From contig CM120646.1 of assembly GCA_051362555.1 (NCBI GenBank), positions 1,736,001 through 1,800,000 on the forward strand: a DNA stretch of 64,000 bases, read 5' to 3'. The notes beneath the pieces are model-generated. The model saw nothing but the letters and a program-made list of their open reading frames with translations, made no database searches and was not told the origin of the DNA. This document shows positions 1,042 to 62,360 of this stretch, one piece after another (positions within the stretch are counted from its first letter, which is position 1; the number at the start of each line of letters is the position of its first letter). The position numbers and the translations under genes were made by a program. The DNA is from Lingula anatina. Its lineage: Eukaryota; Animalia; Brachiopoda.

Positions 1042-1433
1042 ATATTCACATACTAGCAAATTTGGATTTTGTACTTAGCTTCTCGCCGCTTAAAAGGTCG
1101 GGCAAAGCAAAGGATTAGTGAAAAATGTCAAGATGCAAATGTGAAATACACGAATACCCTAAATTTTACCATATTGGCAAGAGTATTTAATGAGTAAGAA
1201 ATCACAACAACAACAATAACAACATCAACAAAAACAACAACAATAATAATAATTTAAGTAATGTCGATACCCATGTGTTAAACCCCATATAAATAGTTCC
1301 AAGAGATAACCCACATCAGCCCCTGTAGATAACCCCTTCCTTCGCTATCTCGACCTTCTCACGTTATATGGGGGTCATTTTAAGCGGTGAGAAGCTAAGT
1401 ACTTGTGTTTTAGCGTCCTGCCATCGTAAGAAG

Positions 1434-17281: not shown

Positions 17282-17578
17282 TCAAAGTGGATGTGCGCGT
17301 GACGTAGAAGCACGCGTGTGGTCATATGGTATTTCCATGACGTCAATATTTGTAACTTGTGCCGTTCCGCGTGTTGAAGCTTTTGTTTCTGTTTCTGTTT
17401 TTAAACTCGAAGCTGTGTCTTCCCTGTACGGAGACGCTATGGCCTGGATTGGAGGTGACCTCTTTGAAGAATTAAACTGGACAACGGGGGCGGCATGCGT
17501 CACAGTAGTGTTGTCCGATTGCTCTGCCGCGCCCACGTCTTCGTCGATCTTTATTAACAGTTTGAGACATGGGACTTG
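17282..17578 (-). CDS. Opsin shared exon 5 (end of helix 8, Ser/Thr-rich C-terminal tail, stop)
   Basis: Acceptor ttcactttgtag|CAA; phase 0 matches the exon 4 donor. QVPCLKLL...RAHPL*. Confidence 0.85.
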   Translation of the reverse strand, partial: QVPCLKLLIKIDEDVGAAEQSDNTTVTHAAPVVQFNSSKRSPPIQAIASPYREDTASSLKTETETKASTRGTAQVTNIDVMEIPYDHTRASTSRAHPL

Positions 17579-17734
17579 CTACAAAGTGAAAAAACATAAA
17601 ACGTGACATGAAAGCTTAAGAATAATTGAAAAGAAAGTTTTATTTAAGAGCTTTTAACACTATATGCTAACTTGACAGAAGCAGAATGAAAACGAAAAAG
17701 TACATGTATTTTGTGTTGAATTCTGTTGTTTCGA

Positions 17735-18215
17735 ATTGTTTGTTTGTTTGTTTTTCTCATTCTTATTAAGGTTTATGATTTTTTTTTTACTCTAACATTA
17801 TGGGCGACGACCATAAACCCATAAAATAAACCTTTGAATACAAATAGTTCTACACATCCGTATGCGGATTTATAGGAAACTACACAAGGATAAGGATCGA
17901 AGGAGGTAAGAGACATATATGAAAGAAATATGTCACTTTATGCCAAAAACGCCACCAAAATTTAAATATGATCGATTTCATTATTATATCTGCTGCATAC
18001 CATAAATTAAAACAATGCAGATTTTGTCATCAAATGTCTAACTATCATGATATTGAATTCCGTTGTTTTCTTTTTATTCTAATTCCTATCAAGGTTTCGC
18101 CCGTTATGTTGTTTGTTTGTTTGTTTGTTTGTTTGTTTGTTTACTCTAAAGTGGGCGACGGCCATAAGCCCATAAAATAAACCCTTGAATACAAATAATT
18201 TTCCACATATCCTGA
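17735..18215. repeat. Local direct duplication (~110 bp) in the last opsin intron
   Basis: (ttgt)n...tactctaa..tgggcgacg.ccataa.cccataaaataaac..ttgaatacaaata occurs at ~17735-17860 and ~18105-18215. Confidence 0.75.
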
Positions 18216-18253
18216 TTGACATCTATTTCCAATATACAAATTAACAAACTTAC

Positions 18254-18473
18254 GTTCACTGCTGCTCGACGAAACCGCTCGTTCATCGCTACGTAGATAA
18301 ACGGATTATACACTGTGGCGGATTTAGCCATCACCGACGGTAAAGCAGCTGCCATGTAGCTGATACTGCTGGCGTCGCCAAATGTTGATATTAAGGCAAC
18401 GGTGGCGTATGGCGTCCAGGCGATCAGAAACGCTGCCCAAACTACGATAGTCATTTTGGCCACTTTCTTCTCC
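18254..18473 (-). CDS. Opsin shared exon 4 (TM6-TM7, retinal-binding lysine)
   Basis: REKKVAKM..FLIAWTPYA..LPSVMAKSATVYNPFIY..NERFR. The K296 equivalent is at 18323-18325. Acceptor taatag|G, donor AAC|gtaagt. Confidence 0.95.
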
Positions 18474-18759
18474 CTATTAAGAAAATAAAACCTCTTCAAA
18501 AAAGATAGAAATCAGACAGAATACAATTACACCTGTTGAATTTATTCTAGAAATTATACATAAAAGAATGTATGTTGTTTACAACGTATTTATTGTGAAA
18601 TTTTTAATTTCATATAAACAGCTGTTATCCCTTTAATTTTAGTTTCCAATCACAACAAACAAAGAACATGGAGCTATCAACCTCGTGTCTGCAGTCTGCG
18701 CAGGCGTTAAAAGGCAAGTTTTAAATGTTGAAGGTTTCTGTTTAAACCAGTCAACCTAC

Positions 18760-19075
18760 CTACGTATGTTCTCCCTACCAGCAGAAGAATCCTGCTCGAT
18801 GGACGTCTGTCTGGCCATGCGTCTCACCTCCCGGTACAAATGATAGTAGCAGACCGCCATAATGACCACCGGAATGAAGAAACAGAATACAAACAGGGTG
18901 ATGATGTATGAGACGTCGATGGGGTCGCTGGATTGCCAGAGGACGCTGCACCAGGTGCCAGGTCCCTCTGTGGTGTAGGAGGACCACCCAAACACGGGGG
19001 GCAGCGCCCACAGAAGAGCGTAGAGCCATGCCCCGGCGGCGATCTGGATGGCTTTTCGAATATCCAAGCGCATGC
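18760..19075 (-). CDS. Opsin shared exon 3 (TM4-EL2-TM5-ICL3)
   Basis: AWLYALLWALPPVFGWSSYTTEGPGTWCSV (E181 and C187 equivalents), FFIPVVIMAVCY. Acceptor ccag|GC, donor AG|gtaggt. Confidence 0.95.
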
Positions 19076-20314
19076 CTGGAAACCATATAAAAAGTTTTTT
19101 CATTTTCGCACATACACTGTACATCGTCCTGGCCCATCTTGATGTGAATTGTTTTGTATTGTACTGTACAAATACATAGATTTTTCTGTATTTTGATGAG
19201 GAGAATTGAGGTAAACATCTCTAAAGGTCACTACCAAATCTAGTTTTGTACTATATTTCGTTTCTTTATCATGACACCTAAAAACTTCCACTCGACGGCC
19301 TCTCATTTCCTGTCAACACATAATAAGATCCAACGTGCAAACCTCTATTTAGTTTCGAGTTTCACGCCTAGGAATCCATTTTGACCTCGACTTTAGGTAA
19401 ACACAACCATATAAATGACAACGCAGTGCCGATTTATATATAGAAATAAATTGGAACCGTACAATTTTGGGAAACAGATTTGAAGCTTGGGTCCTTCTAA
19501 TGAATTAGATATACTGAGAGTCATATTTATTCATTATTAGTATTGGCACAATGGCATCGAAAGTAATAGGTTCAACAATATACCCCAGTGTAATTAGTGT
19601 TTATTTTTATATAGATATTTTCAGATTATTTGTTTCTTAAAAGCATGGAGCTTTTTTATTTCTCAGATTCAATAATAGCTGTTCACAAGTCATTTTTAAA
19701 GCCATGTCTGAAAAGGAGAATACCTGAATAGGAGAAACTTTCAAAAATGTTTTTGAAAAATATCATTCTGCTCAAATAATAAATTGTTGAAGTAATAACA
19801 AGAAGGTGGATTTTTCAATCTTCTCAAGTAATAAGAGGTCGGGGGAATTCAAATATATCGCCGCAGTTCATGATAACTTACGTCATATCCATAGATGTTT
19901 TTAATACGTTTCCATGATTGCCCTTATTCATAAGGACCTCTCCCACGATTCAATTCTTATTTTAATTGTCAACAAAGCGTCTAATGATACATGTCAGTCA
20001 GTTCCAAAAATCCCCCCTGTACGTAACAAAAGAGCAGTTATTAATACCCACCGCCTCCCGGGAGAGCTCATTAACGGACGGCATCAACTAGATGATGATC
20101 GTTTCCGGTGTCCTTCCTGCACGCCTTCAAGTTCGATTTGTGAGTAACGTATGTGATTTCGATGATACTCACAAGTTTGAGCGTACGAAACCACCCTGTT
20201 TCCAGCGTATTTTAATGAAGATATATGAAACCTATGAGACTATTTTTGAACATGCCTGAAATATTTTCTCCCTTAGGCTATGAGAAGGATCATCTAACGT
20301 TTGCATGTACGCAA

Positions 20315-20317
<3 letters not shown>

Positions 20318-20375
<58 letters not shown>
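20318..20375. repeat. (TA)n microsatellite
   Basis: Direct reading of the sequence. Confidence 0.95.
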
Positions 20376-20380
<5 letters not shown>

Positions 20381-21208
20381 TTAAGTCTAACGAAGCCGTT
20401 GCATTTGTCTGCCCACGAGTGCAATACTCTATAGGTGTAAAAGTGCCCTAACAGGTAGAGAGTTGTAAGGTTCCTTAGTTTAGCCTGTTGATATATCGCA
20501 AACCGAATTAAATTCGCTGTGGAGTCAGTCTCGTGTCTTTTCTGTTTCCTCACTTCTTTTTCTCACTTCTATTTCCTCCTCAATTTGAAACCTTATCATA
20601 AATGTGATCATGATGACTAACAAGCAGCTTAACTTTTAAAGATTTCAAATCTGGAATTGCGTTGTTAAAACTTTTGCTTATATTGTCTCTTGAGTCTTAA
20701 ATCTTGTAAAGCAGTGTGATCGAAAGGAAAGTACAAGATTTGATCAATACTCTCAGCTGATTTGTTTACCCGCCCACCCGAAGATACACTAGTTTCCGAT
20801 TTATAACCTAAGACAACGTGTGTCAGACGTAAGCGAGTTCAGAAATAACGTAAATTACGCTGTCCAAAATAACCCTTACAATTTATTACCGCACTATTAA
20901 TATTTTTCGCTTACTCAATACTATCAAACTGTCAGTTTATTCCATCAATACGCCCATTGCTACTCTACGTGATCTAAAGATATACCAATAACAGATTGAA
21001 TTTAAGTAATGAATTATTTTGCTTTCATTTCCTGAGTCGGAACTGTGAAACTGTATCGGTGTGTTGTATGAGAAATTCCGCCATGATACAGGGTTTGATC
21101 CCCATCGATTTGCACAGGTTAGTCCCGTCTTGATTTTGACCCATTTACGTCACGTTAACCTCAACCTGTATGAATCTAAAGGGGACAGACCCTCTGTCAA
21201 GGTATATA

Positions 21209-21491
21209 GGCCTACCGTCACACTTGGCGTATGGCACTAACGTATGAGAAAAATTCCACGTACGCAGACAAACGAAAGGGGGTTCTAGTTAGACTTACGT
21301 TCTAGGCAGACGTTGTTGTACGTTCACAGACCAGGATGAAGATAAAAAGTGTTTTGAGCATGTTCAAAAACATATACGCTGTTTGCATCTTCATTTTAAT
21401 ACACCGTAAACAGGGTGATTTCATGCGCTCAAAGGTGATATAACATACGATACTCACAAGTACCTCTTTACGCTATAGGTGTGACAGGGTC
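21209..21491. mobile_element. Harbinger-like MITE with a diverged inverted partner at ~20150-20450
   Basis: Ends CCGTCACAC / GTGTGACAGG. Internal segments (tttgagcatgttcaaaaa; gcagacaaa..ttagactta) are reverse-complementary to 20243-20260 and 20380-20412. Confidence 0.55.
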
Positions 21492-22069
21492 TTTCTTTAC
21501 ACAGGATCTCAAATCACACATGCCAAACAGTGTTGAAAAATTAAGCTCTACTGCAACATTCAGAATAACATCTATTATACAGTGCACATAAGCGTAAACT
21601 TTCGTGAATAGCATGCAATCCAGTATGGAGGGGTTTACATCATACTGAAATCGGTGTTGGGCTACTTATTGATTGATATCCTAGCTTGTCTTGGGATTGC
21701 CAATGATCAGTTAATTGCATTACTTTGTCATTCCAAGAATAAATTGTTTCCTGGCAGCGTAATAAATCTGTCTAAAAGACATACGGTTTCTCACCCGGTT
21801 TAGAATTGTCTTGTCTGCTTTCTGGGCCGGGGTAAAATATGCAATCATTGCAAGTGCAGGGGCCGACTGTCTTCCTGATTCCAAATTACTATGCGACTGT
21901 GGTGTTTTTTTTTTTTTTTTTTTTTTTTGAAAGATATTAATTTATTTATTCATTTACCTATATTTTCGCGTGTGTGCGTGTGTGTATGTTTTTATTATCT
22001 GATGTCAATTTCTCCCTTCTGTTGTTCCATTGTGGAGATATTTTTTAACTAAGTGAAGGCACAAACCTC

Positions 22070-22070
<1 letters not shown>

Positions 22071-22126
<56 letters not shown>

Positions 22127-22160
22127 CGTGTGTGTGCGTGTGTGTGTGTGTGTGTGTGCG
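22071..22160. repeat. (TC)n(TG)n compound microsatellite
   Basis: Direct reading of the sequence. Confidence 0.95.
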
Positions 22161-22300
22161 TATGTGTATGAGTGAGCGAGAGTGTTATATTTTAGTCACA
22201 CAGACCACGCTGAAAGCAGGATTGACATACCTTCAAACAGCCAGAGAGACAGACGCACAGACAGACAAAAAGAACGACAGACAGACAGAGCTAATCTTAC

Positions 22301-22398
22301 CTGATGTTGGTCTACATATAACAATATATCTGTCAATGGCGATGCAAGAAAGATTAGTGATTGACACCAATCCAAAGAAGTTGTTTGCAAAGCCGTAC
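22301..22398 (-). CDS. Opsin shared exon 2 (TM3, DRY); missed by the ORF track
   Basis: ttcttccgcag|G TAC GGC...= (W)YGFANNFFGLVSITNLSCIAIDRYIVICRPTS(G)|gtaaga; 98 nt. The phase-2 start completes the TG|G Trp codon of each first exon. This is the only copy I found in the window. Confidence 0.95.
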
Positions 22399-23152
22399 CT
22401 GCGGAAGAAAATATAAAAAATATAAATACCATAAGAACAAATGTAATCAGTATTGAAAGAAATGATTCGACATCAACTTTTTATCTTTGTTGTAAACTCA
22501 CTTCACAATGGACAGACAATATTCCTTAGTTTACTTTTTTACACAAATAGATCATTTTCGCTGTTTTAATTTTTTTCTTGTCACATTGTACAGCTACACT
22601 ACAAAACGGGGCAGAAAATTCTGAATTGCACGTATGACAATAAAAATAGAAGTTTATAAAGTGGATATTTAAACTGTTATTTTCTCAGCGGTTTTAAATT
22701 AAGATGTACAGTACCTTGATGATTAAAGGAAGATTATTGAACTTTCCAGGAAAATTAACCTGTTTGTTATATTAAAGGCCAACGCTCATGATATACCTTT
22801 GCCGACCCTCAATTTATATCAATTTCTGTGGTCGGCAAATAGGGGTTGGACATTTCAATTCAGGAAACAATTAAGATCAATCCAGTGGCTTAGCGCTTAA
22901 TGGCCGTAAAGTAATTTCCCAAATAATTTGGAAGCTTTCTAAGAGATCTCATTACGTGCAGTTTACATGGACTACTGTTGGTAAGAGTTTAAGGTCAATC
23001 GCGAAAATTCATTTATCTGCATTATGAGTTAAAACCTTTGGATATAGCATGGCCACATATCAAGGGATACAATCGTCAATCTGATTTAAAGTGGACCCGT
23101 TATAATGTGAGGCGGCAGAATGTATCAAGCCTATGCATTTCCACCACCATCG

Positions 23153-23185
<33 letters not shown>

Positions 23186-26100
23186 ATTTATTCCTTGACT
23201 CTCTACTGGGTCTTGTTTTTTGCGTGACCTTTAACTGGAAATTAGTTCTACGAGTACATTGATCCCAGACAAATCAGTAGAAATGTAATCAAATGCAATG
23301 TTGCGCTTGTTTTTAAACCAACAAGATATTATTTGCCCTTCAAACTAATACAACCAATATAAACTACATTAAAGTCGACTACTAAGAATTTAGCTTTAGC
23401 TGTAGTTGGTCAAATTTAAGTCTAAAAGTTGAGATCAAATTTCGGGCGAACGTTTTTCTTTTCTTTTTTTCTATTTATTTATTTATTTATTTATTCATTT
23501 ATTTATTTTGTAAAAATGGTTCCTGTTGTTAAAATGGGCAACAGCACCTGTCACCTTGAACAAAAAGACTTCGCCGCCATCAAAATATTGGAGAACAACA
23601 CTCTTTGAAGATGACTAAGTCAGAAAACTACTTCATGGCATAGTATAGTATAGGAACAGGGTGAATAAGACGACTAATGAGAATTTCTCTGATCGCAGAA
23701 ATTGACTTCGTTTAGGAGAGATCAGACAAGGCATCAGTGTGGCATTAAGATCCCATTATTATCCTATTATCAACAGCGGGAGATTAAATGCTGTGGCTAT
23801 CGGATTTTCTGCGATCTCGTAAACTGTGTGATAAATCAAAACACCTCCCGCTCTAGTATCTGTTTTCATATCAGTCATATTGTCTTCTTTTTTTATTAAA
23901 ATACCGCTTACCAACCAAGACTGAGAAAAGCGGAGATGTGAGCTAGTCTTACATCTTATGACCTTTATTTTTCATTGTACCAACTTCTTGCTCCAATCGC
24001 TTTTGTTGTTCCACATATTTTCTTAATAAATGTTAATTGCACTCATTAACCTACTTTATTGATAATATATATAGGTAGTTATATAGCATGAGGGATGTGT
24101 GATTATCCCCCGTTTTTGTGAAATTGTATTATATTCTTTTTCGTTATTAATAAATGACCATTTTCAGTCATATGGACCTATGTCTTATTTACCTTTGACT
24201 AAAACCAAAGCTTTATCGTGCTTGTGAACATTTGGCTACATAAATGGGCTTTTTTTCTCCCCTAATATTGACCCAACAATAGACATAATCCTCTGCAGTG
24301 GCGGTTGGGGTGGTTAACCTTGAACGAGGGTGCCTACTTTTTGGGGGACAACAATTTTTTTTGTAAGTCCATTATAAAAAGTATAAACTTTACATCATCT
24401 CTATATTCCAACAAAATATTCTTCATACAATATGCAACATGCAATACAGTATTCTGCATACATTAGACCGTGTAGATAATTAGGATACATAACATTGGAA
24501 AGCAGATGCCAAGAACGTTGTGCACAGAGTTAAAAAACTCTAATTTGCAATTGCTTAAGGAGTCAAAAAACTAATCATGCTGCACATCGAAAGACTTTTG
24601 TCCAATTTATGCGATATACAGAGTTGTAATTATCGTGGAGACGCCTAATGATGTGACGCAAAAATAGCATACATTTCATTTTCTCACGCACAAAGAAATA
24701 ATTAAAGAGGGTCAGCAATGGATCACCTAGATTTAAGGTACAATGATGACGACAGAACAAAATTATCTCTCCAAATATGTGCGTGTGTATGGATTTAATC
24801 TGCAAATTAGTGGATGTTTCTTGCTCGTCGAGTCTGAAAAATGCCTCAGACACAATTAACACGTTATCAATGAAATTCGGCGTTTTAGGCACACCCGTTT
24901 TGTTGGTATCCTACGTATGCATTAGCATATCTTGGACGGGGAGAGGCACTGATGATTAAGGCCTTAGATTTCATTCCCATCGGTCTACTTAGATCGATAA
25001 ACCTCTGCGGGGACTCTTGCTGAGCACAATCTGCTTAACTGAATGACACGTATACTCTTGTTTCCAACATACTCGTATATACCAACATACCAGCCATTCT
25101 GTATTCTCTAAAAGGAGCTAGTGTCTGTCCTATCTTCAAACGCAACAATCTGCGTCGAGATTTTTTTCGTAAAAGCATCCATTACCGCTGTCTTTGCAGG
25201 ACGGGTGTACATCAAAGGCTCTTAAACTTTTCTTCATATCCCTAAGTGGTTTCTTTCGTGCGTTTAACAGATTTTATTCTTATCTAGCCGTCCACAGAGA
25301 CATGGGGGAAATGAACCCCGTCATCCATTTGATGGGGACCTCAAAAGAGCAAAATGCCAATCCCGACAATGGACGTTTCAGTTTAGAATGTCTGAACGAT
25401 ATAAAGCCTACTTTCTGTGTAACAAACTCGATAAAAGGCAGCGAAGGACATGCGGTGTGCACATTTGTGAAGATACAGTGGATGTCACACACAGCTCGCA
25501 TAATTTCCTTAAAGCCTGTGATTTTTCACGGCACTTAGATAATTAACTTGTTTGCTCAAGACATTTGCCCTGATTGCGTTCTGTCTTTTCTGACTTGTAA
25601 AGCCATTACCATTACCATTACTACAGATGGTACTTCACTATCGGTTAACAAAGGGCATCTAGTGTTTGAATGACGTCAAGTGCATGGAGTGATCGTTTAC
25701 TAACTATTGTGCCTGTATTCAAATTTGGTCCTGAAGCTTTTATTTTTGTGAGATCAAATTAAGTGACATTGCGGGAAAAAAAAAGAAAGAGACACGAACC
25801 GGTACATGCCGAAAATGAATGAAGCGTCAGCGGTTCTAGGAACCTACGTTCACGGTAAAAAATGGTCGTGTTGAGTTTTGAAGCATGAAAACAATCTTAA
25901 GATTAAGTAACATGATAATAAAGAAGGAAAGTCCATAGCTTGCCCCCTTCAACCCGAAACAATAATTTCGATATTGTACACATCTTAAGCAAATATCACA
26001 AGAAGCAGCAAGGTGGAAAGTGTGTTTATCAGATGAAACGCTATTATAACGCTACCATAAAGTTTATATGACAGAAAACGTTATGGTAATGTTATAAAAC

Positions 26101-26775
26101 GTTCCGTGACTGCTGGGGTGGGACATATACTGTTAGTAGTATTTAATGGCAACACTTTGAAAACAGTTAACTTTCTAAAAATGTCCTTTATTTCGTTAAA
26201 TAAAGCTAACGCTGTGTCACTGTTCAAACAAAATTAGATAATAAGGGATTTTTTTGGGTGAATTGTAATTCACAAGCTAATGATTTATTGCTTGACTCAT
26301 TGCTGCATTTGAAAAAGACTTTTCTGTCAGCAGCAACAACAAAGCATGTTGTTTAAAGTTTGCAGAACAATTACACATAAAACATATGACCTTGGAGCAT
26401 TTTTATACGAAAATTATACTCTAAGCATATACATAGACATTTTGTCTAATTATTTCTTTGGAACATTGGATTAAAAAGTTCATCCTGGCAGAGTCTGGGT
26501 AAGCTTCTTAGATACCGTCAAACAGCTTTTCTCACATCCGGCATGATGTAAATCTACTGACAGATCTTCTCTAATTATCGCGCCAAGTTTGAACTGATCT
26601 CAGATTTGTTCACTACTTCCTGAGCTGTTATCCCATATACTACCAGAACAGGGTCGAATTATTCATAGCACTGCACATGGTGTAATGGGGCTATACGCGG
26701 AGCCGTTTGTCCTAAAGAGGGCGCTGGGGTAATAGTGGTTATTGAAGATAGCCTCGTTTTCGCGTCCGTGTAGAA

Positions 26776-26877
26776 ATGGCTTTAGAGTATGGGAAGCAAA
26801 CAGTGGCGAAGTTAAAACTTCAACTAGTTGAAAAAGGAGCCCCCACAAGAGGGAAGAAACAGGATTTGATAGAAAGG
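26776..26877 (+). pseudogene. SAP-domain first exon of the transposon's second gene
   Basis: TVAKLKLQLVEKGAPTRGKKQDLIER matches the SAP consensus and is followed by a donor (ag|gttagt). No intact continuation seen. Confidence 0.6.
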
Positions 26878-28650
26878 TTAGTGTATTTACTTATAAATAT
26901 GTCAGTTGTATCACTAACATTGAAGGTTTCGCGCTCGAATCTTCCCGTAAAATATGGGTTTCTGTGTGAGCTACCTGTCAAAAGCCAGGTGTAAGCGGCG
27001 GCTAGTTCCGCTACTTATATGCCTAATTTATTACTATATTTCAAGAAAATAATATTGTCATTGCATATTTCCATATCCCGAGAATATAATGAAGGTATTT
27101 ATGTTTAAAATATGTTTATTGTAGGCACTCCTAGTCGATAAAGGACCGTTCGTTTCAGTAATCAAATTTCGTGTACCAGGTCCGACATTTAACACGACTT
27201 GTGTCAACGCAAATTTTTAAGGGAGAAACAAGGCCTGATGCGTATTTTATGTCAATGACAGTTGACATAACTAAGTGTAGATGAGGTAGACAATCTAAAC
27301 AGTGTTTGCCAAGAATGTTAGCATCGTTTTGTTAGCATCATTGTTTTTTTCACTCCCTCATAACCTTGCATTGATGTTGGTAGGTCCAAGAAGTTATAAA
27401 GAGAAGGAGTAGAAACAAGGGGTTTCCTTTCATCCTATCCTCGTAACGGGCTTAATCCTAATAATTACCCAGCTTGTGGTCTTAGGGAGAGCTTGTGCCT
27501 AATACATATTCAAAAGACCGTTCACGTGGGTTGCTTCAGCCAATTGGGATAAAGCCTTGCGAAGTCTCTAATAATCTCACAGAGAAAACATGGTGGGATT
27601 ACAGAAAGGTGTAGAGAGAGATTTCAAGCCTGGACGCAACCATTTTGGGAAATAAAACTCAAATCATGCGAGATACACCTTCATTTGATCTAGAGCCGAT
27701 CAGTTATACAAAAATTAGTTTCACATCAAGAATGTATGAGAACAATTTCACAAACCCACCTTCAACGCTAAAATTTGCACCTGTAGAAGTCTCATATTTA
27801 TTTTAAATTCTTTTTGTCGTGTAAAGGAAATTTACCTTCATCTAGAAATGACACATTCAATTCACAGCCGTGTACACAAAACAGTAGTACTTGCAATTTC
27901 CGTATGCCAGCCTCGTTTCTTTCTTTTTTGGCACATTATTGCTTATATACCAGGTAGAGCTTAAACAGGAAAATTGGGGAAATGAAAATAAGTTATTGCA
28001 CTTAGTATGATTCTAAATAAAATTTCATTAATACATATTTTTGTTTATATCTTTGTCTATAACATGAGGCCAACTAATAGTAGACTGATAGTTTAAATTC
28101 ATTAGAAGAAAAAAATCAAAGAAATATTTTTATTGATTGATATTGCTTTATTTCAACATTCGAGCAACTTGTATAATATCTAAAACAAAGTACCAGCAAT
28201 GAAAATATGTCAATATTGTTACACCCAACAGTGATTAAAGCAATACAAAAATGGTTAGTTTTTATTTTGATGTGGTGATTATTTTATTTTATACTTTAGA
28301 CAATTAGCCAGTGAACACTAAATTCCCTTTTAAAACTTGGACCACTAAATTCCCTTTTAAAACTTGCACCTCTTATGCACTATAGTTTAATTTTAGTGGT
28401 GGTAAGAAAACAGAGCCGTGTGCCTCATCAAGTTGCTGCTGGAAACAATCATTTTGACTGTTCAATTATGGCTACATGTACATCTGCCAGCAAAACTTAA
28501 GATCTTTCACCTGCATTCTCTTCAACCTGAAATGAGTAAGTGCAGAATTCATTACAAAATATAACTCTATATCCTAAACGAAACTCTGCAAACATCATAT
28601 TGCAATAAAAAATTGAAAAAAATTCCGAGAGTTCCCTGTCATCAAATTTT

Positions 28651-29438
28651 GGACCCACCATTTTGAAAAAGTCCCAAGAAAAGTTGTTTATTTGAAACGA
28701 TGTTTTTCATCTAAAGGATTGATTCATTTAATATCACAATGATATATTGTAATGGTGCACGTGCTTAACTAACCAGAAAAACATAAATTATATGCATACA
28801 CCACGTTAAAATTACCAAAACTTGTCCCAAACTGACACCCAACTGTCTCTAACCAATTTAGGGACCCGCCATTTTGAAAAAGTCGGATGAAAGTTGTCTA
28901 TTTGAAACGATGTTTTTCATCTAAAGGATTGATTCATTTAATACTAAAGTGATGTATTGTAATGATGCACGTGCTTAACTAACCAGAAAAACATAAATTA
29001 TATGCATACACCACGTTAAAATTACCAAAAATTGTCCCAAACTGTCACCCAACTGTCTCTAACCAATTTAGGGACCCGCCATTTTGAAAAAGTCGGATGA
29101 AAAGTTGTCTATTTGAAACGATGTTTTTCATCTAAAGGATTGACTCATTTAATATCACAATGATGTATTGTAATGGTGCACGTGCTAAACTAACCAGAAA
29201 AACATAAATTATATGCATACATCACGTTAAAATTACCAAAAATTGTCCCAAACTGTCACTCAACTATCCCTTACCAATTTAGGGACCCGCCATTTTGAAA
29301 AAGTCCGATGAAAAGTTGTCTATTTGAAACGATGTTTTTCATCTAAAGGATTTATTAATTTAATACCAAAGTGATGTGTTGTAATGATGCACGTGCTTAA
29401 CTAACCAAAAAAACATAAATTATGTTCATACATCACGC
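28651..29438. repeat. Tandem array of ~210-bp units (~3.7 copies) nested in the transposon
   Basis: ggaccc.ccattttgaaaaagtc recurs at ~28651, 28862, 29072 and 29283. Confidence 0.9.
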
Positions 29439-30299
29439 ACTTAAGAAGAAAAAAGGTCCTAAACATGGAGGTCCCGCTGAATCGGCCTCAGATCTTCGAG
29501 CTAACGCTGCTTTCTGCACTGACAAATTTGACTGACAGCCACCGTATGAACATAAAACAATGCTCAAAGCAGATTATCAACTCTCACTCACCTTTATATC
29601 GATCGACTTGGCGTTTTTCTAAGTATAACTTCCAAATATTCGCATTAAACATGAATAAATCAAGACGTATACGCACTGGTTCAGCTTCTCCGTCTTGAGT
29701 CACGCGGAGGCGAGCGGAGGATTAGACCAGTTACGAGGATCGAATTTCAAAGGACGCCGCTTTGAAAAGAATGCTGCGATCTGATTGGACGAGAGAGATA
29801 ATTGATGTCCCGTTTCTACTCCTTCTCATTATAACTTCTTGGTAGGTCACAGAGAAGGAAGTGGCATAACTTGAAAACAGAACTAGAGACCAAAGAAAAA
29901 GTCGAGTGTGGCATGAAGAAAGATCATGGAGAATAACAGCATCGAGGTAGGTGTGCAAACGAAAATAAGTTTGCTAGTTTTTTACTTGTTCAAATGTCTT
30001 GTATCAATGTCATGTCATACAATGTCATGTAGCTTGAGCTACTATGTACCTGAAGTTGCATTATAGTACAGAAATACAAGTTGTGAGATGATATATCATG
30101 GTTTGGAGGTCACAATTTAATGCTATGAATGTACAATTTCATTTTGCATTTGAAATACAAATTGAAAAGAACAGTAAAAAAACAAAATCTCATTAATTTA
30201 ATTTTATTTTTTAGGTTTGGTGATATTTTGAACGCAACCGAAAGACGAGACAAGGGCAAATTATGCCAGTGACTCTTGTTTACCCATGAAATCAATACT

Positions 30300-31668
30300 C
30301 CATATTTCTTAAGTTTTAAAGGCATATAGTCGTCAACAATGTCACGTTCTGGCTAAATGTTCATTTCACTGAGCTGGAAAAACAAAGTTGATCCATGTGC
30401 TTTTTATTTCTGACACCGTTGTTACCGATAGCTTGAAACTGTCAAAATGCATAATGGTCAAAAAACATTGGTCCACTGGTGACAAACATTTGAAATTCAA
30501 GCGGTGAGCTGCTGGTCCAAGGCAATTGAAAAACAACATGAAGTGTTCAAATGACTGAATCCAGTTAGATACTGGACAGCCTTTGCATTTTGCTGGTACA
30601 GCATGATGCTTTCTCTTGTGTCTGATGATGTAATGATATCACAATGGGAAGCTGTACTTTCTTTTTGGCTCTCACCAGGACAGTCTTCATGTTTGTCTTC
30701 CACTGCTTCATCTGCTCGAGACTCAACTTATAGGATACAACAAAAAATAAATACATAAGTTAATAAATTACACAAAGTAAAATACTTCATGTATTAATTT
30801 TAATTGTGTTTAAACACATAAAATCGGTGTAGATGACAGAAATGACGCAGATCTGACTGCCTCTTGTCCTGTTTAGTCCGTCTCTTGTATTTTTAGATAA
30901 TTCTGTATTTACACAGATAATTATACAAATAAAAATAAACATTTTATTTATAAATCTGTTATTATATCATGCGTTATATTTACCTCCATGAATACAATCA
31001 GGAGCTGTAAGTAGGCCTACTGTCACCGGATCTAATACTTTGCAGCTTTTAGCTAGACAGCTGATGATGGTACGTCTTTCACTTTATTAAATGGAAATAT
31101 GGATGGTATCGTTCCTGGCTTCAGTCTTTTTCTCTCATCTGCAAAAGGAGTGCACATAACGATTATTAATACAATAAAAATCAAGTTGCCTTAATTTGAA
31201 AACGTGGCCTTTAAAAAAACTCATGGATTAAATCACATAAAAACGAAGAAATAATTGTATTGGTTGGTCGGGGTTGACCCGGGCTCGGTAGCTTAGTAGG
31301 TAGAGTGTTTTCTCCCCCCAAATCGCTACACAATGTTAGGTGAAGAATGTCTTAAAATTAACATTCTAAGCACGTTACACGATATAATTACTTAAACATC
31401 GATAACAAAGACCTAATGAATAAGTTGACAAACTCATTATTAATACTAAAAGCGACAATAACAAGTACAACTTACGTAGAAGTGTAATCTTCCTCACGAA
31501 AGTGGAGGAAACAGACTTTGTCATGTGCCTTTGGTTTCCATAGTGTTTTTGATGTAGAATCAACCCTCCTGATGGCAACTTTCCACTGGTAACTTAGCTT
31601 TGTGTCTTTCGGAAAGAATGACCTCCTGTTGACGATGTACATTCCCGAACACAACAGTATCCTGGCAT
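30300..31668 (-). pseudogene. THAP-domain transposase remnant (THAP + HTH; DDE core not found)
   Basis: ATG 31668 MPGYCCVRECTS, frameshift, then FPKD..QWKVAIRR..WKP..KVCFLHF. A later exon gives RLKPGTIPSIFP (AVPTIF-like box, ~31090-31140), then AVQYLTGF, LSPVDQCFLT and PERDIVDDYMP. Confidence 0.75.
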
Positions 31669-34380
31669 TATTTAGAGCGATATTTACAGCGTCAGATTAA
31701 AAATGAAACTGCAAACACACGAGAAAGTACGCGCATGCGCAAAAGTATCCCAACTAAAACACGCGCGCCACCCAGTGGTGAAAAAAACTGATAGCCCCAT
31801 TGATTAAATGGCTAGTTCGGACAAAACGGACTGGGTTCAACAGGTTTCGGAATTTCGATAAAATCGTCACCTTTGTCATAAACATACTGCACGGAATCAT
31901 TGGTATTAAGGAAAAAGGATTTCTACTCTACACACTAAACCCCCGACGCGTAATGTTTGGGGAATTTCGGGTTTCGCTATACTCTAGTGGGGCTCATGAC
32001 AGTCTTAGCATAGTTAGCAACTGCATAAAGCAGTTTATACGAGTCATCGAATGACGTGTATTAAAAAATTACAAGGTTTCTTTCACCAAGACTAACTGAG
32101 AATAAAGTTCAATAAAATAAGGTATATCATAGGCAACCTTTGTTTATCAACGTTCATTGTTTTTGTAGAACACTATGTCTTGTGGCGGAAGTCACTGACA
32201 AGCCTTACAAGTCATTACATCAAAACAATATATGCAATCGTCTACAATGTTTTCTAAAAAAAAGTATAAGCGAGCGAATATGATGCAGTGCAGCTTTTAA
32301 TCACTGCCATCATCATTATGTATTTATGTCTACACTCCGTGTATTATGACGACTACCATTTAAATGTAAAAGAATTGGATGAACTTAACCACCGAGCTTG
32401 TGAACACTTGCGAGATATTTGCCTGGTTATCTTAAAATCAAAATGCTTTTTACAGTTAACTGTTTTCTTGAGAAACCTATTTTACACATGTACGTGAGAC
32501 ACATTTTATGAAAAACGTATTTAAAAAACGATATTACTGCAAACGTTTATATTATCCCCTCATAGTAAGCCAAAACGCTCACCACACAGGGAACAGGTGT
32601 CTTGCACAGTTCTGACAAATATGACACTGGTCAAAGTTGTCTTTAGTGGCTGGTTGCAAAGCTGTGTTCTAACATCAATGAAACAAGGGTGATTGTCCGC
32701 CCATGCTCCGTCCCCAGCGTGATTAAGTTCTCTCAAACGATTATTGCTGCAATTATTCCAGTCTTCGGGGGATAAGACAATTATTGAACAGGGAAAACAT
32801 CGCGATAAGGGTAGGAACCTTTTAAACGACACGTAATTGACCGAAAACAGGGTAAGGCAATAAAATGGCCTACACACCTAGGGATCACCATCTGATATTA
32901 CAAACCAATCATTGCATGACGGTTATTCATCTACATTGGATTGGCGTTCCTTTGTCAGGAAAAAATATGATGCACAGTACAGGTAGTGTCGGCTTCATAT
33001 AGCAATAATTGAACCGATGTTATTCATTCTTTAAAAAGAAGGAGCAGACAGAAATTAATTATTCATTCTAAAACACTAAAAATATTTCATTTATTGATGA
33101 ATGTATATCCAATCCTGAAATAAGCATTGTGTATGTCTGAGAGAGAAAGCTCGCCCTTATCGTAGGGGAAATGGCTGCACATGCTTCGGGTGTCAGTTGA
33201 ATTTGCTCGTGTTGATTGTGTAATCTTCTGATATCCAATGTTGAAGGCAAATATCTACAGCCTAACGATAAAAGTAAGACCAAGCGTTATATCTGTGGTT
33301 GGAAGATGCAGGCCGTGGTGACGACACAAAAAAGTCATTCAAATTGGCGTTTTGTATAGTATTAACATGACGTTTTCCTTATTACTCGATCAATCACGCT
33401 CAAAAACCTTTGAAAAAAGTGCATTTATCTGTCGCCAGCACCGGAAGAACAGTAATGTATTGCAAGGATTTATTAGCAATAAACCGAGCAAAAAGGGGAA
33501 AAAAGCTCACGTTGTTGTTGTTATGATGCTTTGGTACAAGCAGTGTGCGTGTGTGTGTGTGTGTGTGTGTGTTTGCTTGTGTGTTTTTTCAAAATGTTTC
33601 AATCCAGTGATTTCAGAAAATGACCAGTCCCGGCCAAGTGAAAATTAAAATATTTGTTATCAAAGAACTGTGCGAAACCGTAATGTAAAGTCACGGATCA
33701 CAAAAGCCACAGGTCACAACTTAGTATTTCTAATAGTTAAAGTGCCATTGATTGAAAATTCTACTCTTAACAGAAATGTCAGCCACCTGTCGACCTAACA
33801 ACTGCTGTAAAAAGAATTGCAACATCAGCGGAACTCAGAGAACGACATGGGGGGGGGGGGGGAAGAGAGGGCTGGAACTCGGAGGTGAAACTGATGGGAA
33901 AGACGTGGAAGCAACAGCAGAGAGAAGGCAGTCCGGCGCCTTAGGAGCTGCATGTTGAAGCATAAGGGACACGGTGCTCACACCTTATATTCCATGTAGT
34001 GCGTACAGGGTATGTGAGCAATAAAAGTTCTTAAAAGCATAAAAAATATTGACCGTACCGCAGCCGTTGCTTACCACATAACCCCCCTCATAATAGCGTA
34101 GACAGATATTGATAAAATCCGTGTACAAATGGCCCATGCGGGAACATACATCAACAACACACGCCCAACACAATCACATGTACACAAACGCATCTTTTAC
34201 ACACACACACACACACACGCTGATTACTTGCCTGCCTGACGCATAATAGAACTCCACATTATCATTTATCTATTCTGCACACATATTTTCTCTTTCGTGA
34301 ATAAGTTGCAAAAGAAAACCTCAAGCCGAGAACTAATTTGAAGCCAGTTTTGTAATGACATTAAAGCAATTGCCACTCAC

Positions 34381-34763
34381 CAGGTGCATCCGCCCTCTCC
34401 ATACAGCCAGTGTGTCGCCCAACTGGACGACGATGAAAACGGATTCCCGACAACAGAAATAGCCAAGTCACTGATCGTTAGAGAAATCACGAATATGTTA
34501 GTCGGCGTCTGCAGCTCTTTGGTCTTGAAAAAAAGATAGAGAACGAAACTGTTTCCAATGAACGCCAGAACGCCAATCAAGCCAATGAAGAACCCAAGAC
34601 AGTAGAAATTCTCAACGGGCCAATTTTCCGGGCCGGTACCATTGGTGTGGTTTTGTTGGTCGAGGACCCCTGGTTTATCACCCGGTTGATAGGCCAAACT
34701 GATATCTAACGAGTTCTGGGCGGCAACCCAGACAGAACTTTGGTTATGCGCTGATGACAACAT
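34381..34763 (-). CDS. Opsin alternative first coding exon C (N-terminus, TM1, TM2, EL1), proximal
   Basis: ATG at 34763; 383 nt; GNSFV, TPTNIFV, SDLAI, WLYGEGGCTW; donor TG|gtgagt. Gives a 437-aa opsin with exons 2-5. Confidence 0.92.
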
Positions 34764-36928
34764 TATCCTTTTGGAAAAGAACGCGGCATGCAATTGGCAA
34801 TTTATAGTTTCAGCGGCATAATCCCAATGACGCCATTCGCCTTTGTTAACGTTGATGTACAAGACAGCTAAAAGATGGCTTTGTCCTTGGATGTTTTGAT
34901 CGCTCAATTGGAAATCCAGTTATATAACTGTTTACACTATGCCTTAGACATCGACGAACGCTGTTTAGGAAATTCCGTTCTTTATGTATTAAAAACCTCA
35001 CTTCCGCTTACACCATTCAATACAGCGTGCATGCTACTCGTACACTTCTGGTCATATATTGCATTAACATCGTCTCAACTGGCGTAATAAAGATGCTTGC
35101 TTCTCAAAGCCAATTTTCAGTCCTAAAAGACTCGATGCAACAGGTTTCTGCGAACGATATTCCCAGCCTCAAAGTGGGTAGCTGAGGAAGGTCGAAGTGA
35201 GACAACGTTCGTAATCTTTTTTATGCAATGTTCCTATAATTGTTGCAGAACTAATATTATATATATTCATCAATCTCGAATGAAAATTATGTAAACCTGT
35301 ATTCATGCATATATTCTTATAATATCTGAATATTTTATATAACCATGTTAAGGTTATTTTTGTCTCCTCTTCAGAGAGCGTTTTTGTTTCATGCGAAATG
35401 GTTCAATGCAGGTAAAAAAATGGTTTCAGATCGCAGCCGAGGTGCTGCCCTTTATTATATATATATTTTTTTTTTTTACTAGTGTTATCTTAAAAGTGCA
35501 ACAAGGTCTTGGTTCTTATTTTTTCTCAAAGGAGTTTAGAAGGCGGGATGGTATCCGCAAAGCTTACTGAATAAGATATGTTGATATAATCTGGCTAGCG
35601 CATCGTACCTGCTAACACAATCAGCAAGTTCAAAGAAAGCAAATAGGCTACCCTTGCCGTTAGCATGTCGCGTGCTCTGCGGGAGATACATATAAATCCA
35701 ATATGCGGTTGACACACACGCTATTGGACGCGTAACTTATAAAGATAAAAACTTTTGTATCCTCATTGTGAATGAATGTGTTGACGGTATCTTTACAAAT
35801 TATGAACATTTCATACCTATACAGAAACCAGTGTATTTGAGGGGTTGTGATATCTAAATGATTGAAAACATGGATATCTACAATGGTATTTTTGCAGCAT
35901 AATTCATGTCAGATGGAATATAAGATACTACTCAAAGCAGGTCACAGCTGTGATGTGCTAGATGGTAAAAAAACATGTGGAACTGAAGCTGTGACAGCTT
36001 TTGTTCATTGTAAGAACCTGGTTGGAAGAGATGTGACAGAGAGGATTATGATGAAATGTTAGAACATTAAGCATTGTGTTTATGTATTTTCTTTGTAACT
36101 TGGAAATTCTTTCCATTCGGAATATCTTTTTTGTTGTTCAGTAAAATCTTTTGCAGCGTTTACCAATTACGTGTGAATGTTACCAAGATATGTTATTCAT
36201 AGAAAAAAGGTATGGGGTCAAAATGGTGGCGCGAAATTCTCCTTGGCAACGTCAACTTGTTTTACGTCTATAATAAACACATTGGCTGAGATATGCAGCA
36301 GTAGACGTTAACGAGCAGATACTTTTTTAGGCATAGGATAAAGTCTTCACAGATTTTACGGTGTATTAGGAGCAAAGTGTCTCAATACAACGTCTCAAAA
36401 TAGTGCATACCTCTTCATGCATATAAATAATGACGAAAATTGCCTTTAGCAAACCTAAGCTTGTATTTTCATCGTTTAACGCCTCGGTGTGTACTGGAAG
36501 ATCACCACCACCGAAGTAGTTGAGCTCAAATGTCAGTGAATGCAGGACCAGTGACAATACAACATAACTGGTCTTCCTCCCCCCCCCCCCACCCACCCAC
36601 CCCCACCCCCCCGTTACGTAAGTGTAATCATTTTAGCACATTTCGTTACTGATCTATGCACTCTTTACAATTTAAATAAAAATTCAATTTTTATACACAT
36701 TTTTTATGTTGTTAAATCCTTTACAATAAGTTTTACCCTCATACCGGTAAATTACAAGTAAACCTGATTTTCCTATCACGTTTTAATACCTCGCATGACG
36801 TCACTCGTTTGCCGAAAGCCTCGATTTAAGATGCCTTGGATACCCACCCCCAAAATAAATAAATAAATAGATAAATAAACAAACAAACAAACAAACAAAC
36901 AAACAAACAAATAAAAAATGCGACTTAC

Positions 36929-37311
36929 CAAATGCACCCGCTTTCTCCAAACAACCACCGCGACACAAAACTGGACGACGACGCAAACGGATTCCCGACA
37001 ACAGAAATAGCCAAGTCACTGATCGTTAGAGAAATCACGAATATGTTAGTCGGCGTACGCAGCTCTTTAGTCTTGGCAAAAAGGTAGAGAATGAAACTGT
37101 TTCCAGTGAACGCCAGAACGCCGATGAGGCCAATGAAAAACCCAAGAGAGTAGTAATTCTCAAGGGGCCACTGTTCTGGACCGGTACCATTGGTGTGGTT
37201 TTGTTGGTCGACGGTCCCTGGTTTATCACCCGGTTGATTGGCCAAACTGATATCTGAAAAATTCTGGGCGGCAATCCAGCCAAAACTTTGGTTTTGTGCT
37301 GATGACAGCAT
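36929..37311 (-). CDS. Opsin alternative first coding exon B
   Basis: ATG at 37311; 383 nt; no stops or indels; donor TG|gtaagt; same phase as exons A and C. Confidence 0.88.
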
Positions 37312-38439
37312 TATCCTTTCTGTAGTTGACTTTCACGCATACTCTATGGAAATTTATAATTCAGAGGCTTAACATTATCTATTCAGTGAATAGCGCGGCA
37401 TGTAATTGGCAATTCATCGTTTCGGCGGCATAAAATCAATGCCGCCTTCCGCCTTTATTTGCACTGATGGACAAGACAGCTTGAAGATGGCTCGGGTGGC
37501 AATCCAGTCATTTATTTGTTTACACGACATGCTTTATGGATCGACGAACGCTGTTTAAGAAATTAAGCTATTTATGTATTGGAATCTCACTTCTGCTTGC
37601 AAAGCATCTTGCACACGCTATTCGTGCGGTGCTGGGGAGATGCCAGAGAGATACACAAGCCTGCTACTGCATTGCGGCCGTCGCACCTGTCGGAATGAAG
37701 ATTCATGCTCCTCGAAATCAATTCTCCGTCTTTGACACTATTACCAACATCAAGTAGTTGAAGAATGTGGAAGTGAGGCAATTTATGTATTATCTTTTTT
37801 TATTGTTTGCTTTGAGCATAATAAATTTAATACCTACTCGAACAAATGATTTCAAAGCACTCACCCCAACATGTGCACACACACCTATACATGTATATAC
37901 ACCCAGATCACAATCACAAAAAGACATATATCCAAACACACTTGCACCCAACTGATAACGCATCTACAGCCTGGTATTTTCTCTTTATTTAATAAAATTG
38001 TTCACATGGCATAATATAAAATGATTTTAAATTTGCATTTTCCTAATAATATGATCATATATCATTAAAACATTAAAGCAATGGGATCATCCGGGATAGC
38101 CCAAAATCTCACAACTCTGAATAAAGTCTGGCAAGATTTTGAGGGATTTGGAAGAGAGTGGGGTCAGAAATAATAGCGGCTAGTGAGAGCGGCGCAATAA
38201 AACGCTAAAGCTTACAGCTGTTATCCACTTGCTGCTTTCTGTTCATAGGTTCAGTAAGGACTACAGTGCGACTTCGACTATGATTTACTTGTCGCTTTTG
38301 TATTGCTTTCGTAGACATAATTCCCATCGCTATCTCATCTTTGAATAAAAAACTTTCACTTTTTAGGTTACCGTTAGCCTTGGCCAAAAACTCCCCATTT
38401 ACTGCCTTACATACATTTTTTTGGATAACTGATAACACT

Positions 38440-38820
38440 TCAGTGTTCAGTGACTAACCTTATTAACATTTAAATACATATTTTCTTACTGGTGACGTCA
38501 TAATTGCAATTTTGGGGTAAAATTGATAAAAAATCGGTTTCTCAAATTTCTCCTCAACCTGAGCAACAACGAACACCGTTTCAACGCCAATTTAATGAAA
38601 CTACCAGAACCCTGCCAGCATTTTCTTTAAAGCCTTAGTTCAGATTTTAACGTTCATAAAGCAAAATAACGCCTTTGTTTAATGAAAATATGTAATTGAG
38701 GGCTCATAACTCCACAACAAAAACATTTCAACCAAAATGACGGCACAAATTGTAGCCAATACACTTGTGATAGACTATGACAATTTTCGTCATAAAATCT
38801 TGTTCAGGGATAAAGTTACG
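38440..38820. repeat. Dispersed repeat; inverted homologue at ~42285-42665
   Basis: aattttcgtcataaaatcttgttcagggat (38782) vs atcctgaacaagattttatcacgaaaatt (42288), and aaaataacgcctttgtttaatgaaa (38663) vs tttcattaaacaaaggtgttatttt (42367), are reverse complements. Confidence 0.75.
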
Positions 38821-39190
38821 AACTATACTGATTACCATGTCACCTCAAAATAGAAAGGTGTTAAACTGACTATTAAAGCTTTGAGTTGCCCATGCTTCTT
38901 GTTTGCAAAGAGAAATATAAAAACCGATATTTTATATTTTTGAGGGGATTTTTATTGTTTTTTTAAAATAAGCACAAAGATAGATACATTATCGAATGAT
39001 AAGATGAAAGAAACTTTTTCGTACCTGAATGAAAATAAAGGTTCGCAATACCCTTAAAAGTTAGCCTTCCTTCAAGCAGATTCAAGCACTTTTTTAAAAT
39101 CTAGCACGAGGTCACTTTGTACCTATAGGATCGTTTCAAGCTACCCCTTCCCTCCCCCCCCCCCCACCCCCTCCCCCACCACACACTTAC

Positions 39191-39573
39191 CAAATGCATC
39201 CGATTTCTCCATACAACCACCGCGACGCAAAACTGGACGACGACGCAAACGGGTTCCCGACCACAGAGATGGCTAAATCACTAATCGTAAGTGACATCAC
39301 AAACACGTTGATAGGCGTCTGCAGCTCTTTCGTCTTGGCAAAAATATAGAGAATAAAACTGTTTCCAGTGAACGCCAGAACGCCAATCAGGCCAAGAAAA
39401 ACTCCAAGACAGTAGAAATTCTCAACGGGCCAAATTTCTGAGCCGGTACCATTGGTGTGGTTTTGTTGGTCGAGGACCCCTGGTTTATCACCCGGTTGAT
39501 AGGCCAAACTGTTAGCTGACAAGTTCTGAGCAGCAAACAAACTGAGACTTTGGTTTTGTGTTGACAATAGCAT
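39191..39573 (-). CDS. Opsin alternative first coding exon A, distal
   Basis: ATG at 39573; 383 nt; no stops or indels; donor TG|gtaagt; many synonymous differences from exons B and C. Confidence 0.88.
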
Positions 39574-39645
39574 TGTCCTTTCGGTAGATCGATGACTAGT
39601 ATGCTTTCTTCTCTGAAAATTTATAGTTTATCTGTTTAAGACGAG

Positions 39646-39653
39646 TGACGTCA
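39646..39653. promoter_or_regulatory. Palindromic CRE-like site (TGACGTCA) ~73 nt upstream of the opsin exon A ATG
   Basis: Exact motif match only; function untested. Confidence 0.35.
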
Positions 39654-42056: not shown

Positions 42057-42897
42057 CCTGGATTCCAAATGACGAAAATGAGTTTTTCCTGCACCTAATT
42101 ACCCACTAATGCATGTAACTTTGTCCTGATTTTAAACAATAAAAATCCCCTTGAAACATATAAAATATCGTTGTTGATATTAGCAACCTACTAGTTGCCA
42201 TGCATTTATGCATAGGGCACTCAGGGCAATTATAGTCAATTTAACAGATTGCTGTTTGAACGAGCAATTGATATGGGACGTAACCTCATCCCTGAACAAG
42301 ATTTTATCACGAAAATTAGCACAGTCTATTGTTAACTTATGGAGCGATAAGCCCCCAATTACGGATTTTCATTAAACAAAGGTGTTATTTTGTACTGTCA
42401 ACGATGAAATCTGAACTAAGGCTAGCTTAAAAAAAAAAAAAAAAAAAAAAACGCTGACAGGATTTTAGAGCACTTAATGGTTGCAATAATGAAGTCGGCG
42501 TTGCAACGGCGATCGTGGCTACTCAGGTACTGGTAGGCCTACTAAAGGAGAAATCTCAAAAACCGGTTATCCATTTTAACCCCAAAATCGCAATTATGGC
42601 GTCACCTGTAAGATGACACGTGTGTAAATGTTAAATAATTAAGTCACTGAATAGTAACTGTTATCCATAAGAATGTAAGCTACATGTATGTAGAGGGGGG
42701 ACCTGGGTTTTCAGTGGAAACCAGGTTTTTCGTGGCGCATTTGCACCCCCCCCCCCTTAGGCCTACATCTTTCTTTTCAGTTAATTTTCATTGTGTTATT
42801 ATAATTTATTAGCCTTATTGCATAATTATTTTTACTTTCCCAGGACAAATATCCCGCTGACTCCCTTCGCCACAAACAGTTTTCGTGTAATTATTAA

Positions 42898-56486: not shown

Positions 56487-62360
<5,874 letters not shown>

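Follow-up and report, generated by a model that had tools for sequence, protein, structure and literature searches.

The variable exon of the clustered protocadherins and of UGT1A accounts for most of the protein or for an entire domain of it. These genes share with GCNT2 and KCNAB1 an arrangement of tandem homologous 5′ coding exons, alternative promoters and constant 3′ exons (as set out in the available part of PMC8373072), and the chelicerate sDscam genes likewise combine tandem 5′ variable exons with constant 3′ exons (PMC4835542, in the part available). A closer precedent for the locus discussed here is Drosophila Gr39a, which encodes a seven-helix sensory receptor from tandem large 5′ exons, with donors, and shared 3′ exons: according to the available part of PMC2204066, any of four large 5′ exons is joined to three shared exons, the exons are under purifying selection that is relaxed in the duplicated ones, and Gr23a and Gr28b are also named as alternatively spliced. 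The gene in question is an opsin gene of the brachiopod Lingula anatina, which lies on the minus strand of a 64,000-nucleotide stretch of DNA (assembly GCA_051362555.1, contig CM120646.1, positions 1,736,001 to 1,800,000); this stretch is called the window below, and all coordinates and copy counts refer to it. From its sequence, we think it reasonably probable that a triplicated first exon gives rise, by choice of promoter, to three isoforms of 437 residues, each with seven transmembrane helices (7-TM).

The variable-5′/constant-3′ anatomy is real. Three first exons, or cassettes, namely A (39191..39573), B (36929..37311) and C (34381..34763, the proximal one), each run without a stop for 383 nucleotides (nt) from an ATG to a phase-2 donor, the ends reading TG/GTAAGT in A and B and TG/GTGAGT in C. 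Exon A encodes the N-terminus, transmembrane helix 1 (TM1), loop 1, TM2 and the first extracellular loop (EL1), ending at W112, and matches Pfam 7tm_1 with E 4e-11. The shared exons are exon 2 (22301..22398; 98 nt), with TM3, Tyr at site 113 and the DRY motif; exon 3 (18760..19075), with TM4, EL2 (Glu at site 181, Cys at 187) and TM5; exon 4 (18254..18473), with TM6, TM7 containing K296 (18325-18323), NPxxY and helix 8; and exon 5 (17282..17578), with the C-terminal tail and the stop, which matches the tail of the RefSeq model XP_013394150.1. Exons 2-5 have AG/GT boundaries throughout, and any of the first exons joined to them gives 1314 nt, i.e. 437 residues, with one terminal stop. In pairwise comparison the identity among the first exons is 82.5-87.2% at the DNA level and 78-80% at the protein level; the spacers between them (1879 nt from A to B, 2165 nt from B to C) are non-repeated sequence, and C is separated from exon 2 by an intron of 11,982 nt. 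Searches of the window using tblastn (E up to 10, word size 2), self-comparison and an opsin profile (six frames, stops read as X) found three copies of exon 1 and a single copy of each of exons 2-5, the next-best profile score anywhere else in the 64 kb being 3.3 bits; the same three approaches ruled out hidden or decayed copies of exon 2 between the cassettes. The locus therefore has tandem 5′ coding exons, every one of which brings a start codon of its own and a donor in the same phase, and one 3′ set in the window. An earlier note on this DNA had described this core anatomy correctly: its coordinates, 383-nt lengths and phase-2 donors are borne out by direct reading, its single set of exons 2-5, with none between the first exons, by tblastn and the opsin profile, and its in-frame 437-residue opsin with K296 from each first exon by in-silico joins and alignment with bovine rhodopsin. 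What it overlooked were the bathyopsin identity of the gene, the mosaic left by gene conversion and an in-frame AG before each ATG.

When this anatomy is set beside the known systems, several differences emerge. Gr39a is not a rhodopsin-family G-protein-coupled receptor, and its variable exon supplies six helices and most of the ligand pocket, whereas that of Lingula supplies two helices of one integrated bundle and leaves the retinal pocket mostly constant; moreover, splicing of Gr39a has been demonstrated, whereas that of the Lingula gene is predicted from sequence. The products of the protocadherin, UGT1A, GCNT2, KCNAB1 and sDscam loci are adhesion proteins, enzymes and channel subunits, whereas that of Lingula is a receptor, and where clusters of the protocadherin, UGT1A and sDscam type hold 9-21 variable exons there are just three cassettes here. 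Melanopsin and VA opsin have known C-terminal splice forms, which are a different phenomenon. The earlier note's view that the design is known from protocadherins and UGT1A stands (PMC8373072, in the part available), but it missed the closer precedent of Gr39a. The catalogue of human cases in that paper has 39 N-terminal examples, and the word “opsin” is missing from the available part of its main text. The note also knew of no opsin described with this design, and our search of the full-text literature, which covered titles and the starts of abstracts and left most subscription papers and bioRxiv supplements outside, similarly turned up none with duplicated alternative first exons; nor did the titles and abstract starts of the literature on Lingula or bathyopsin include a paper on the structure of the locus. 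A duplicated exon goes unmentioned in the available parts of PMC5521729, PMC5648526 and PMC10097855, all of which use XP_013410035, a RefSeq model of this gene, as does the layout of the locus in those of PMC12104807, PMC9368030 and bioRxiv 10.1101/538538; the repeated exon might be visible, without comment in the text, in the gene-structure figure of PMC5648526. The layout is known in kind, and an opsin built on it would appear to be new among the literature searched.

As to the identity of the protein, it has the rhodopsin-family 7-TM domain and the TM7 lysine of animal (type 2) opsins. Pfam 7tm_1 was found in six of the seven exon translations (the tail exon being without a match), the best PDB matches of the exon translations were opsins, and residues 1-72 of exon 4 align at equal length with residues 247-318 of bovine rhodopsin, residue 50 (codon 18325-18323) being the Lys aligned with bovine K296. 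A search of the ESM Atlas returned generic 7tm_1 clusters only. The motif in TM3 hints at a c-opsin or TMT identity, but this was set aside because published trees group XP_013410035 with echinoderm opsin2, and the gene is taken here to be the Lingula bathyopsin. In the supplementary trees of PMC5521729, the bathyopsins have XP_013410035 as their brachiopod member, which stands beside three echinoderm opsin2 sequences with support of 100; it is through being the same gene as this model that the present one falls in a clade with echinoderm opsin2. The available part of PMC5648526 names the model “peropsin A” and drops it as unstable in trees, and also reports a gene structure resembling that of opsin2 from the sea urchin Strongylocentrotus, unlike those of c-opsins and xenopsins; the bathyopsin clade itself is described as unstable in some studies (PMC5648526 and PMC9368030, each in the part available). 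A quick tree of 40 rows, none of them labelled opsin2, grouped the isoforms with proteins from Owenia, Ptychodera, Glandiceps and Lytechinus and with one further protein, at a Shimodaira–Hasegawa-like approximate likelihood ratio test (SH-aLRT) value of 94, which falls under the tool's mark of 95. These relatives (Owenia CAH1794499.1, Glandiceps XP_077979537.1, Ptychodera XP_070557899.1 and Lytechinus XP_041486013.1) are 35-48% identical to isoform A and, being known here from proteins alone, have a single TM1-2 match per protein; an exon-sized relative, P0003, terminates at the same Trp as exon 1. The grouping with bathyopsin in this tree of opsins from an annelid (Owenia) and two hemichordates (Glandiceps and Ptychodera), represented by P0004, P0005 and P0010, is of some interest in itself; no annelid or hemichordate bathyopsins are reported in the available part of PMC5521729, and the clade may extend further than originally thought.

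The history and operation of the locus that we propose are as follows. A promoter together with exon 1, amounting to some 0.7 kb of recognisable homology, would have been duplicated twice in tandem. Transcription starting at a given cassette would put that cassette's exon next to the cap, and its donor would then splice across 12-17 kb to exon 2, bypassing any downstream cassettes because (it is proposed) these are without a strong acceptor. Ectopic gene conversion would meanwhile shuffle patches between the cassettes. The main outcome would probably be that a single bathyopsin can be regulated separately in space and time, the proteins differing modestly in the N-terminus, loop 1 and EL1. The fact that Gr39a, the protocadherins and UGT1A operate with this layout speaks for the proposal.

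Evidence that the cassettes are under purifying selection is strong for A, the one most distant from exon 2, and weak for B and C alone. Among the changes unique to A, synonymous ones outnumber non-synonymous ones by 22 to 16 (omega about 0.22, p 4e-6), or by 16 to 7 when only the TM part is considered (omega 0.14). Pairwise ratios of non-synonymous to synonymous rates (dN/dS) over whole exons are 0.26 for A-B, 0.24 for A-C and 0.49 for B-C, the corresponding values for the TM part being 0.15, 0.18 and 0.43. The earlier note had pointed to a stretch in which A and B differ at 9 of 14 codons, all synonymously; the count is exact, but as a signature of selection this is one hand-picked stretch, and it represents a single comparison because B and C do not differ from each other in these 14 codons. 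The cassettes also swap patches by gene conversion and are mosaics: there are identical tracts of 70 nt between A and C (0 of 5000 permutations, p<0.0002) and of 72 nt between B and C (p 0.004), while informative sites of like type are adjacent 45 times out of 84 (p 0.0002). All three exons have kept one length, an open frame and GTRAGT, which counts for promoter choice, while behind the donor hexamer the introns of two of the three pairs align no better than shuffles; the apparent A-B similarity downstream of the donors was considered as real homology and rejected, as the match is a poly-G run only. A simulated neutral exon of 383 nt (n=3000), scored as intact if it retained its ATG, frame and GT, survived without indels in 14% of runs at 0.1 changes per site and in 1.3% at 0.25, while adding indels (at assumed rates) lowered this to 0.2-1.7% at 0.1 and to 0 of 3000 at 0.2-0.25; this test is weakened because conversion operates.

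Each of the three cassettes is preceded by TATAAA, at -52 in A, -47 in B and -43 in C. This motif occurs in 1.1% of all 20-nt windows of the 64 kb, although the three occurrences are not independent because the cassettes are homologous. The candidate core promoter of A (39620..39653, minus strand) consists of TATAAA at 39625-39620, 52 nt before the ATG, and the palindromic TGACGTCA at 39653-39646, a consensus match only. We presume TGACGTCA to be cAMP response element (CRE)-like; it stands at -80 of A, and a one-mismatch version of it at -72 of C. In the candidate promoter of B (37353..37601, minus strand; TATAAA at 37358-37353, 47 nt before the ATG) the proximal stretch is A-like and the distal part, some 230 nt at 37371-37601, is homologous to the upstream region of C, while that of C (34764..35012, minus strand) has TATAAA at 34806-34801, 43 nt before the ATG, and TGGCGTCA at 34835-34828. 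Over 400 nt upstream, the alignment score of B with C is 150 against a shuffle maximum of 29, a strong result; A with C is marginal (32 against 30) and A with B is not above shuffles (27 against 28), the last 50 nt upstream of B nevertheless resembling those of A. Taken together, selection on A and the TATA box before each exon speak for the proposed alternative promoters. Further upstream, about 200-290 nt before each ATG, there is a conserved GTGAG motif (at approximately 39793, 37592 and 35001, minus strand) followed by a conserved block; it might belong to the promoter or serve as donor of a non-coding exon further upstream, and only that of A fits the full donor consensus.

Automatic gene models often chain tandem exons, which tells against taking the fusion of A to B in the public record of this locus as a sign of serial splicing. 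In the supplement to PMC10097855 the row XM013554581LianBRABAT reads exon-A sequence, then one Ile, then exon-B sequence, while XP_013410035 carries B-type TM1-2 residues in the supplementary table of PMC5521729; XM_013554581 and XP_013410035 are here equated as one model because the numeric offset between them equals that of another Lingula XM/XP pair. Over the first 400 or so characters of the published rows, which are what the comparisons with RefSeq cover, the A part of XP_013410035 (“peropsin-like A”) differs by eye from A of the window at 11 of 128 residues, of which eight are as in B of the window (11, 33, 34, 45, 47, 50, 53 and 77), one (127) is as in C and two are peculiar to the model; it retains the A-specific TM residues 58, 60, 88, 90, 93 and 124. 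The second copy differs, again by eye, from B of the window at 8 of 127 residues, four of them matching A or C, and the third copy, C, was not seen within that portion of the XP_013410035/XM_013554581 rows. XP_013410035 is probably a gene-model chimera of two first exons.

These models bear also on whether the locus might be an assembly artefact, made from several complete genes, or might share its first exons with other copies of exons 2-5 elsewhere. Such a situation could be suspected from the existence of a second model of the constant region besides XP_013410035: a search of protein collections using exon 3 gave one match among 95 candidates, namely L. anatina XP_013394150.1, a 276-residue model comprising exons 3-5 only, which lies on a 72.6-kb contig and is identical at 268 of 276 positions. 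At 97%, however, this fits an allele, and the gene set of the older Lingula assembly is described as redundant in the available part of PMC13121700. Differences from the window are more frequent in the first exons of the RefSeq model (19 of 255) than in the constant region of XP_013394150.1 (8 of 276; Fisher p 0.018), and the two models may represent different haplotypes. The tandem order A then B, with both open, recurs in an independent second sequence of this locus, making misassembly unlikely; in addition, the spacers are short and non-repeated, and genes with first exons 20% apart would not be expected to have exons 2-5 capable of collapsing. We consider either form of this explanation very improbable.

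Several observations weigh against promoter choice. Changes unique to B number 7 synonymous to 13 non-synonymous (omega 0.56, p 0.16, with omega 1.09 in the N-terminal part) and those unique to C 10 to 17 (omega 0.51, p 0.07). Conversion from a working cassette can preserve the intact look of a silent one. Early termination in the spacers is possible through copies of AATAAA, three between A and B and one between B and C, a motif that is expected in AT-rich DNA. The sole public model fuses A to B instead of using them alternatively, and the join of the non-proximal B to exon 2 that it suggests would lie beyond the portion of about 400 characters mentioned above: the B copy fills the TM1-2 columns of the 7-TM core in two published alignments, which is a point in favour of such a join and of promoter choice, though it could also reflect the loss of C from that assembly. 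Exon 1 of Lingula was not found in protein collections, including a search of 1.84 billion proteins; exon A gave no match among 567 candidates (longer proteins) and exon B none among 18 (similar length), while a library at 50% identity held nothing above 51% identity among the 150 matches listed, for which reason XP_013410035 is apparently missing from the collections searched. Finally, the AG before C is among the top 5% of AGs in the window and is a possible acceptor.

The first two of these points are relevant to a reading in which a single cassette, whether C or another, is used, and the others are silent or dead-end partial duplicates that conversion has kept intact. Conversion is clear enough from the two long tracts and the clustered sites, and B's own changes are indistinguishable from neutral. 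Against this, 22 private synonymous differences of A have not been erased and its TM part has few replacements, which implies that both sides of the split between A and B/C are constrained; furthermore, A and B are open in the second sequence, and all three cassettes have retained TATA and donor. On balance we regard use of one cassette as unlikely, and more plausible for B alone than for A.

If promoter choice is to work, it follows that downstream cassettes must be skipped, and the question then arises as to whether they might instead be chained. The acceptors of exons 2-5 have tracts that are 69-88% pyrimidine (63-69% T). An AG stands in frame 4 nt before every ATG, preceded by tracts that are 56% pyrimidine in A, 38% in B and 75% in C, so that transcripts from A or B might pick up C. 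Serial splicing through these AGs (A-B, A-C, B-C or A-B-C) would lead to opsins of 9 or 11 helices; the chained forms have no stop, come to 566 or 695 residues and gain two hydrophobic segments per cassette, and the topology would permit this, EL1 and the N-terminus both being extracellular. Such splicing yields Trp-Ile-Met, which is precisely the A-B junction of XM_013554581, and the AGs before B and C are both in frame and open. However, the AG also occurs before the ATG of A, the first cassette, and is on that account better seen as an inherited feature of the 5′ untranslated region; before B it is an AAG with a purine-rich tract, and in every cassette the full N-terminus and a start at TATA spacing have been kept. 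Chaining must be taken seriously as a rival, especially where it leads into C, even though as an account of the whole locus it seems decidedly improbable.

Under promoter choice, the protein differences between the isoforms would be modest. With bovine numbering, which we take to be anchored on D83 and C110 (a spacing of 27, matched here), 21 of residues 49-127 vary among A, B and C, but none at 78-93. A and B are identical over 78-99, while C is the only one with Ser in place of Ala at 94, and it also departs at 99, 101, 102 and 111; sites 113 and 181, K296, loops 2 and 3 and the tail are common to all. The likeliest role of the cassettes is regulatory, since pocket sites, loops 2-3 and the tail are shared and A equals B at the TM2 pocket, and tuning would be possible for C only, this being the one isoform predicted to differ near the Schiff base (at site 94). 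An Ala/Thr exchange at site 94 of shark rhodopsins is reported to shift absorbance by 19 nm and to alter thermal stability (PMC10068813, in the part available), although carrying this effect over to a bathyopsin is an extrapolation. The earlier note's “three photopigments” was therefore an overstatement, as A and B agree at the TM2 pocket positions checked and C alone differs at site 94; its claim of a common G-protein-coupling half holds for loops 2 and 3 and the tail, but not for cytoplasmic loop 1, which lies in the variable exon. A more ambitious version, in which promoters choose TM1-2 modules by cell or stage, C (with Ser at site 94 and an EL1 of its own) is altered in wavelength or thermal stability relative to A and B, and conversion continues to create new chimeric cassettes in the population, is possible but rather doubtful.

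Opsin repertoires are counted as genes and their growth is ascribed to whole-gene duplication; a cassette locus, if this is truly what is present here, would yield several receptors that such counts miss, and would constitute a natural experiment in which TM1-2 are swapped on one pigment. Were the version with promoter-chosen modules true, Lingula would be building an opsin repertoire in the style of the protocadherins. Among the bathyopsins, which form a small and poorly understood clade, the gene is also the founding protostome member. At least three opsin phylogenies have drawn on XP_013410035, which appears to be fused from two first exons and merits re-annotation.

Some features of the surrounding sequence may be recorded briefly. 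Exon A and its promoter are flanked by an old inverted repeat pair (38431-38991 and 42107-42665; 64% over 619 nt). The intron between C and exon 2 contains, on the opsin strand, a decayed remnant of a THAP-domain (P-element-type) transposon with a frame break (31668-31475, minus), whose open piece at 31615-31475 matches Pfam THAP with E 2e-5, and a tandem array at 28651-29437 with a 211-bp unit in 3.7 copies (93% matches). Upstream of the gene, at about 57050-58180 (minus), are exons of an SPOP-like BTB/BACK gene (Pfam BTB E 9e-17, BACK_BPM_SPOP E 0.007), and downstream, at 14747-15776 (plus), is a broken Tc1/mariner-type transposase with HTH_Tnp_Tc3_2 and DDE_3 in different frames. An exon encoding a fibrinogen C-terminal domain (6068-6460, plus; Pfam E 2e-17) adjoins a duplicated block, 1042-3278 and 7010-9395, the copies of which are 80-87% similar. 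Lastly, a direct repeat of 242 bp (217-458 and 800-1041, 99.6% identical) overlaps an open reading frame of 186 codons (482-1042), which looks gag-like by eye and has no Pfam match; it is possibly a small remnant of a long terminal repeat (LTR) element.

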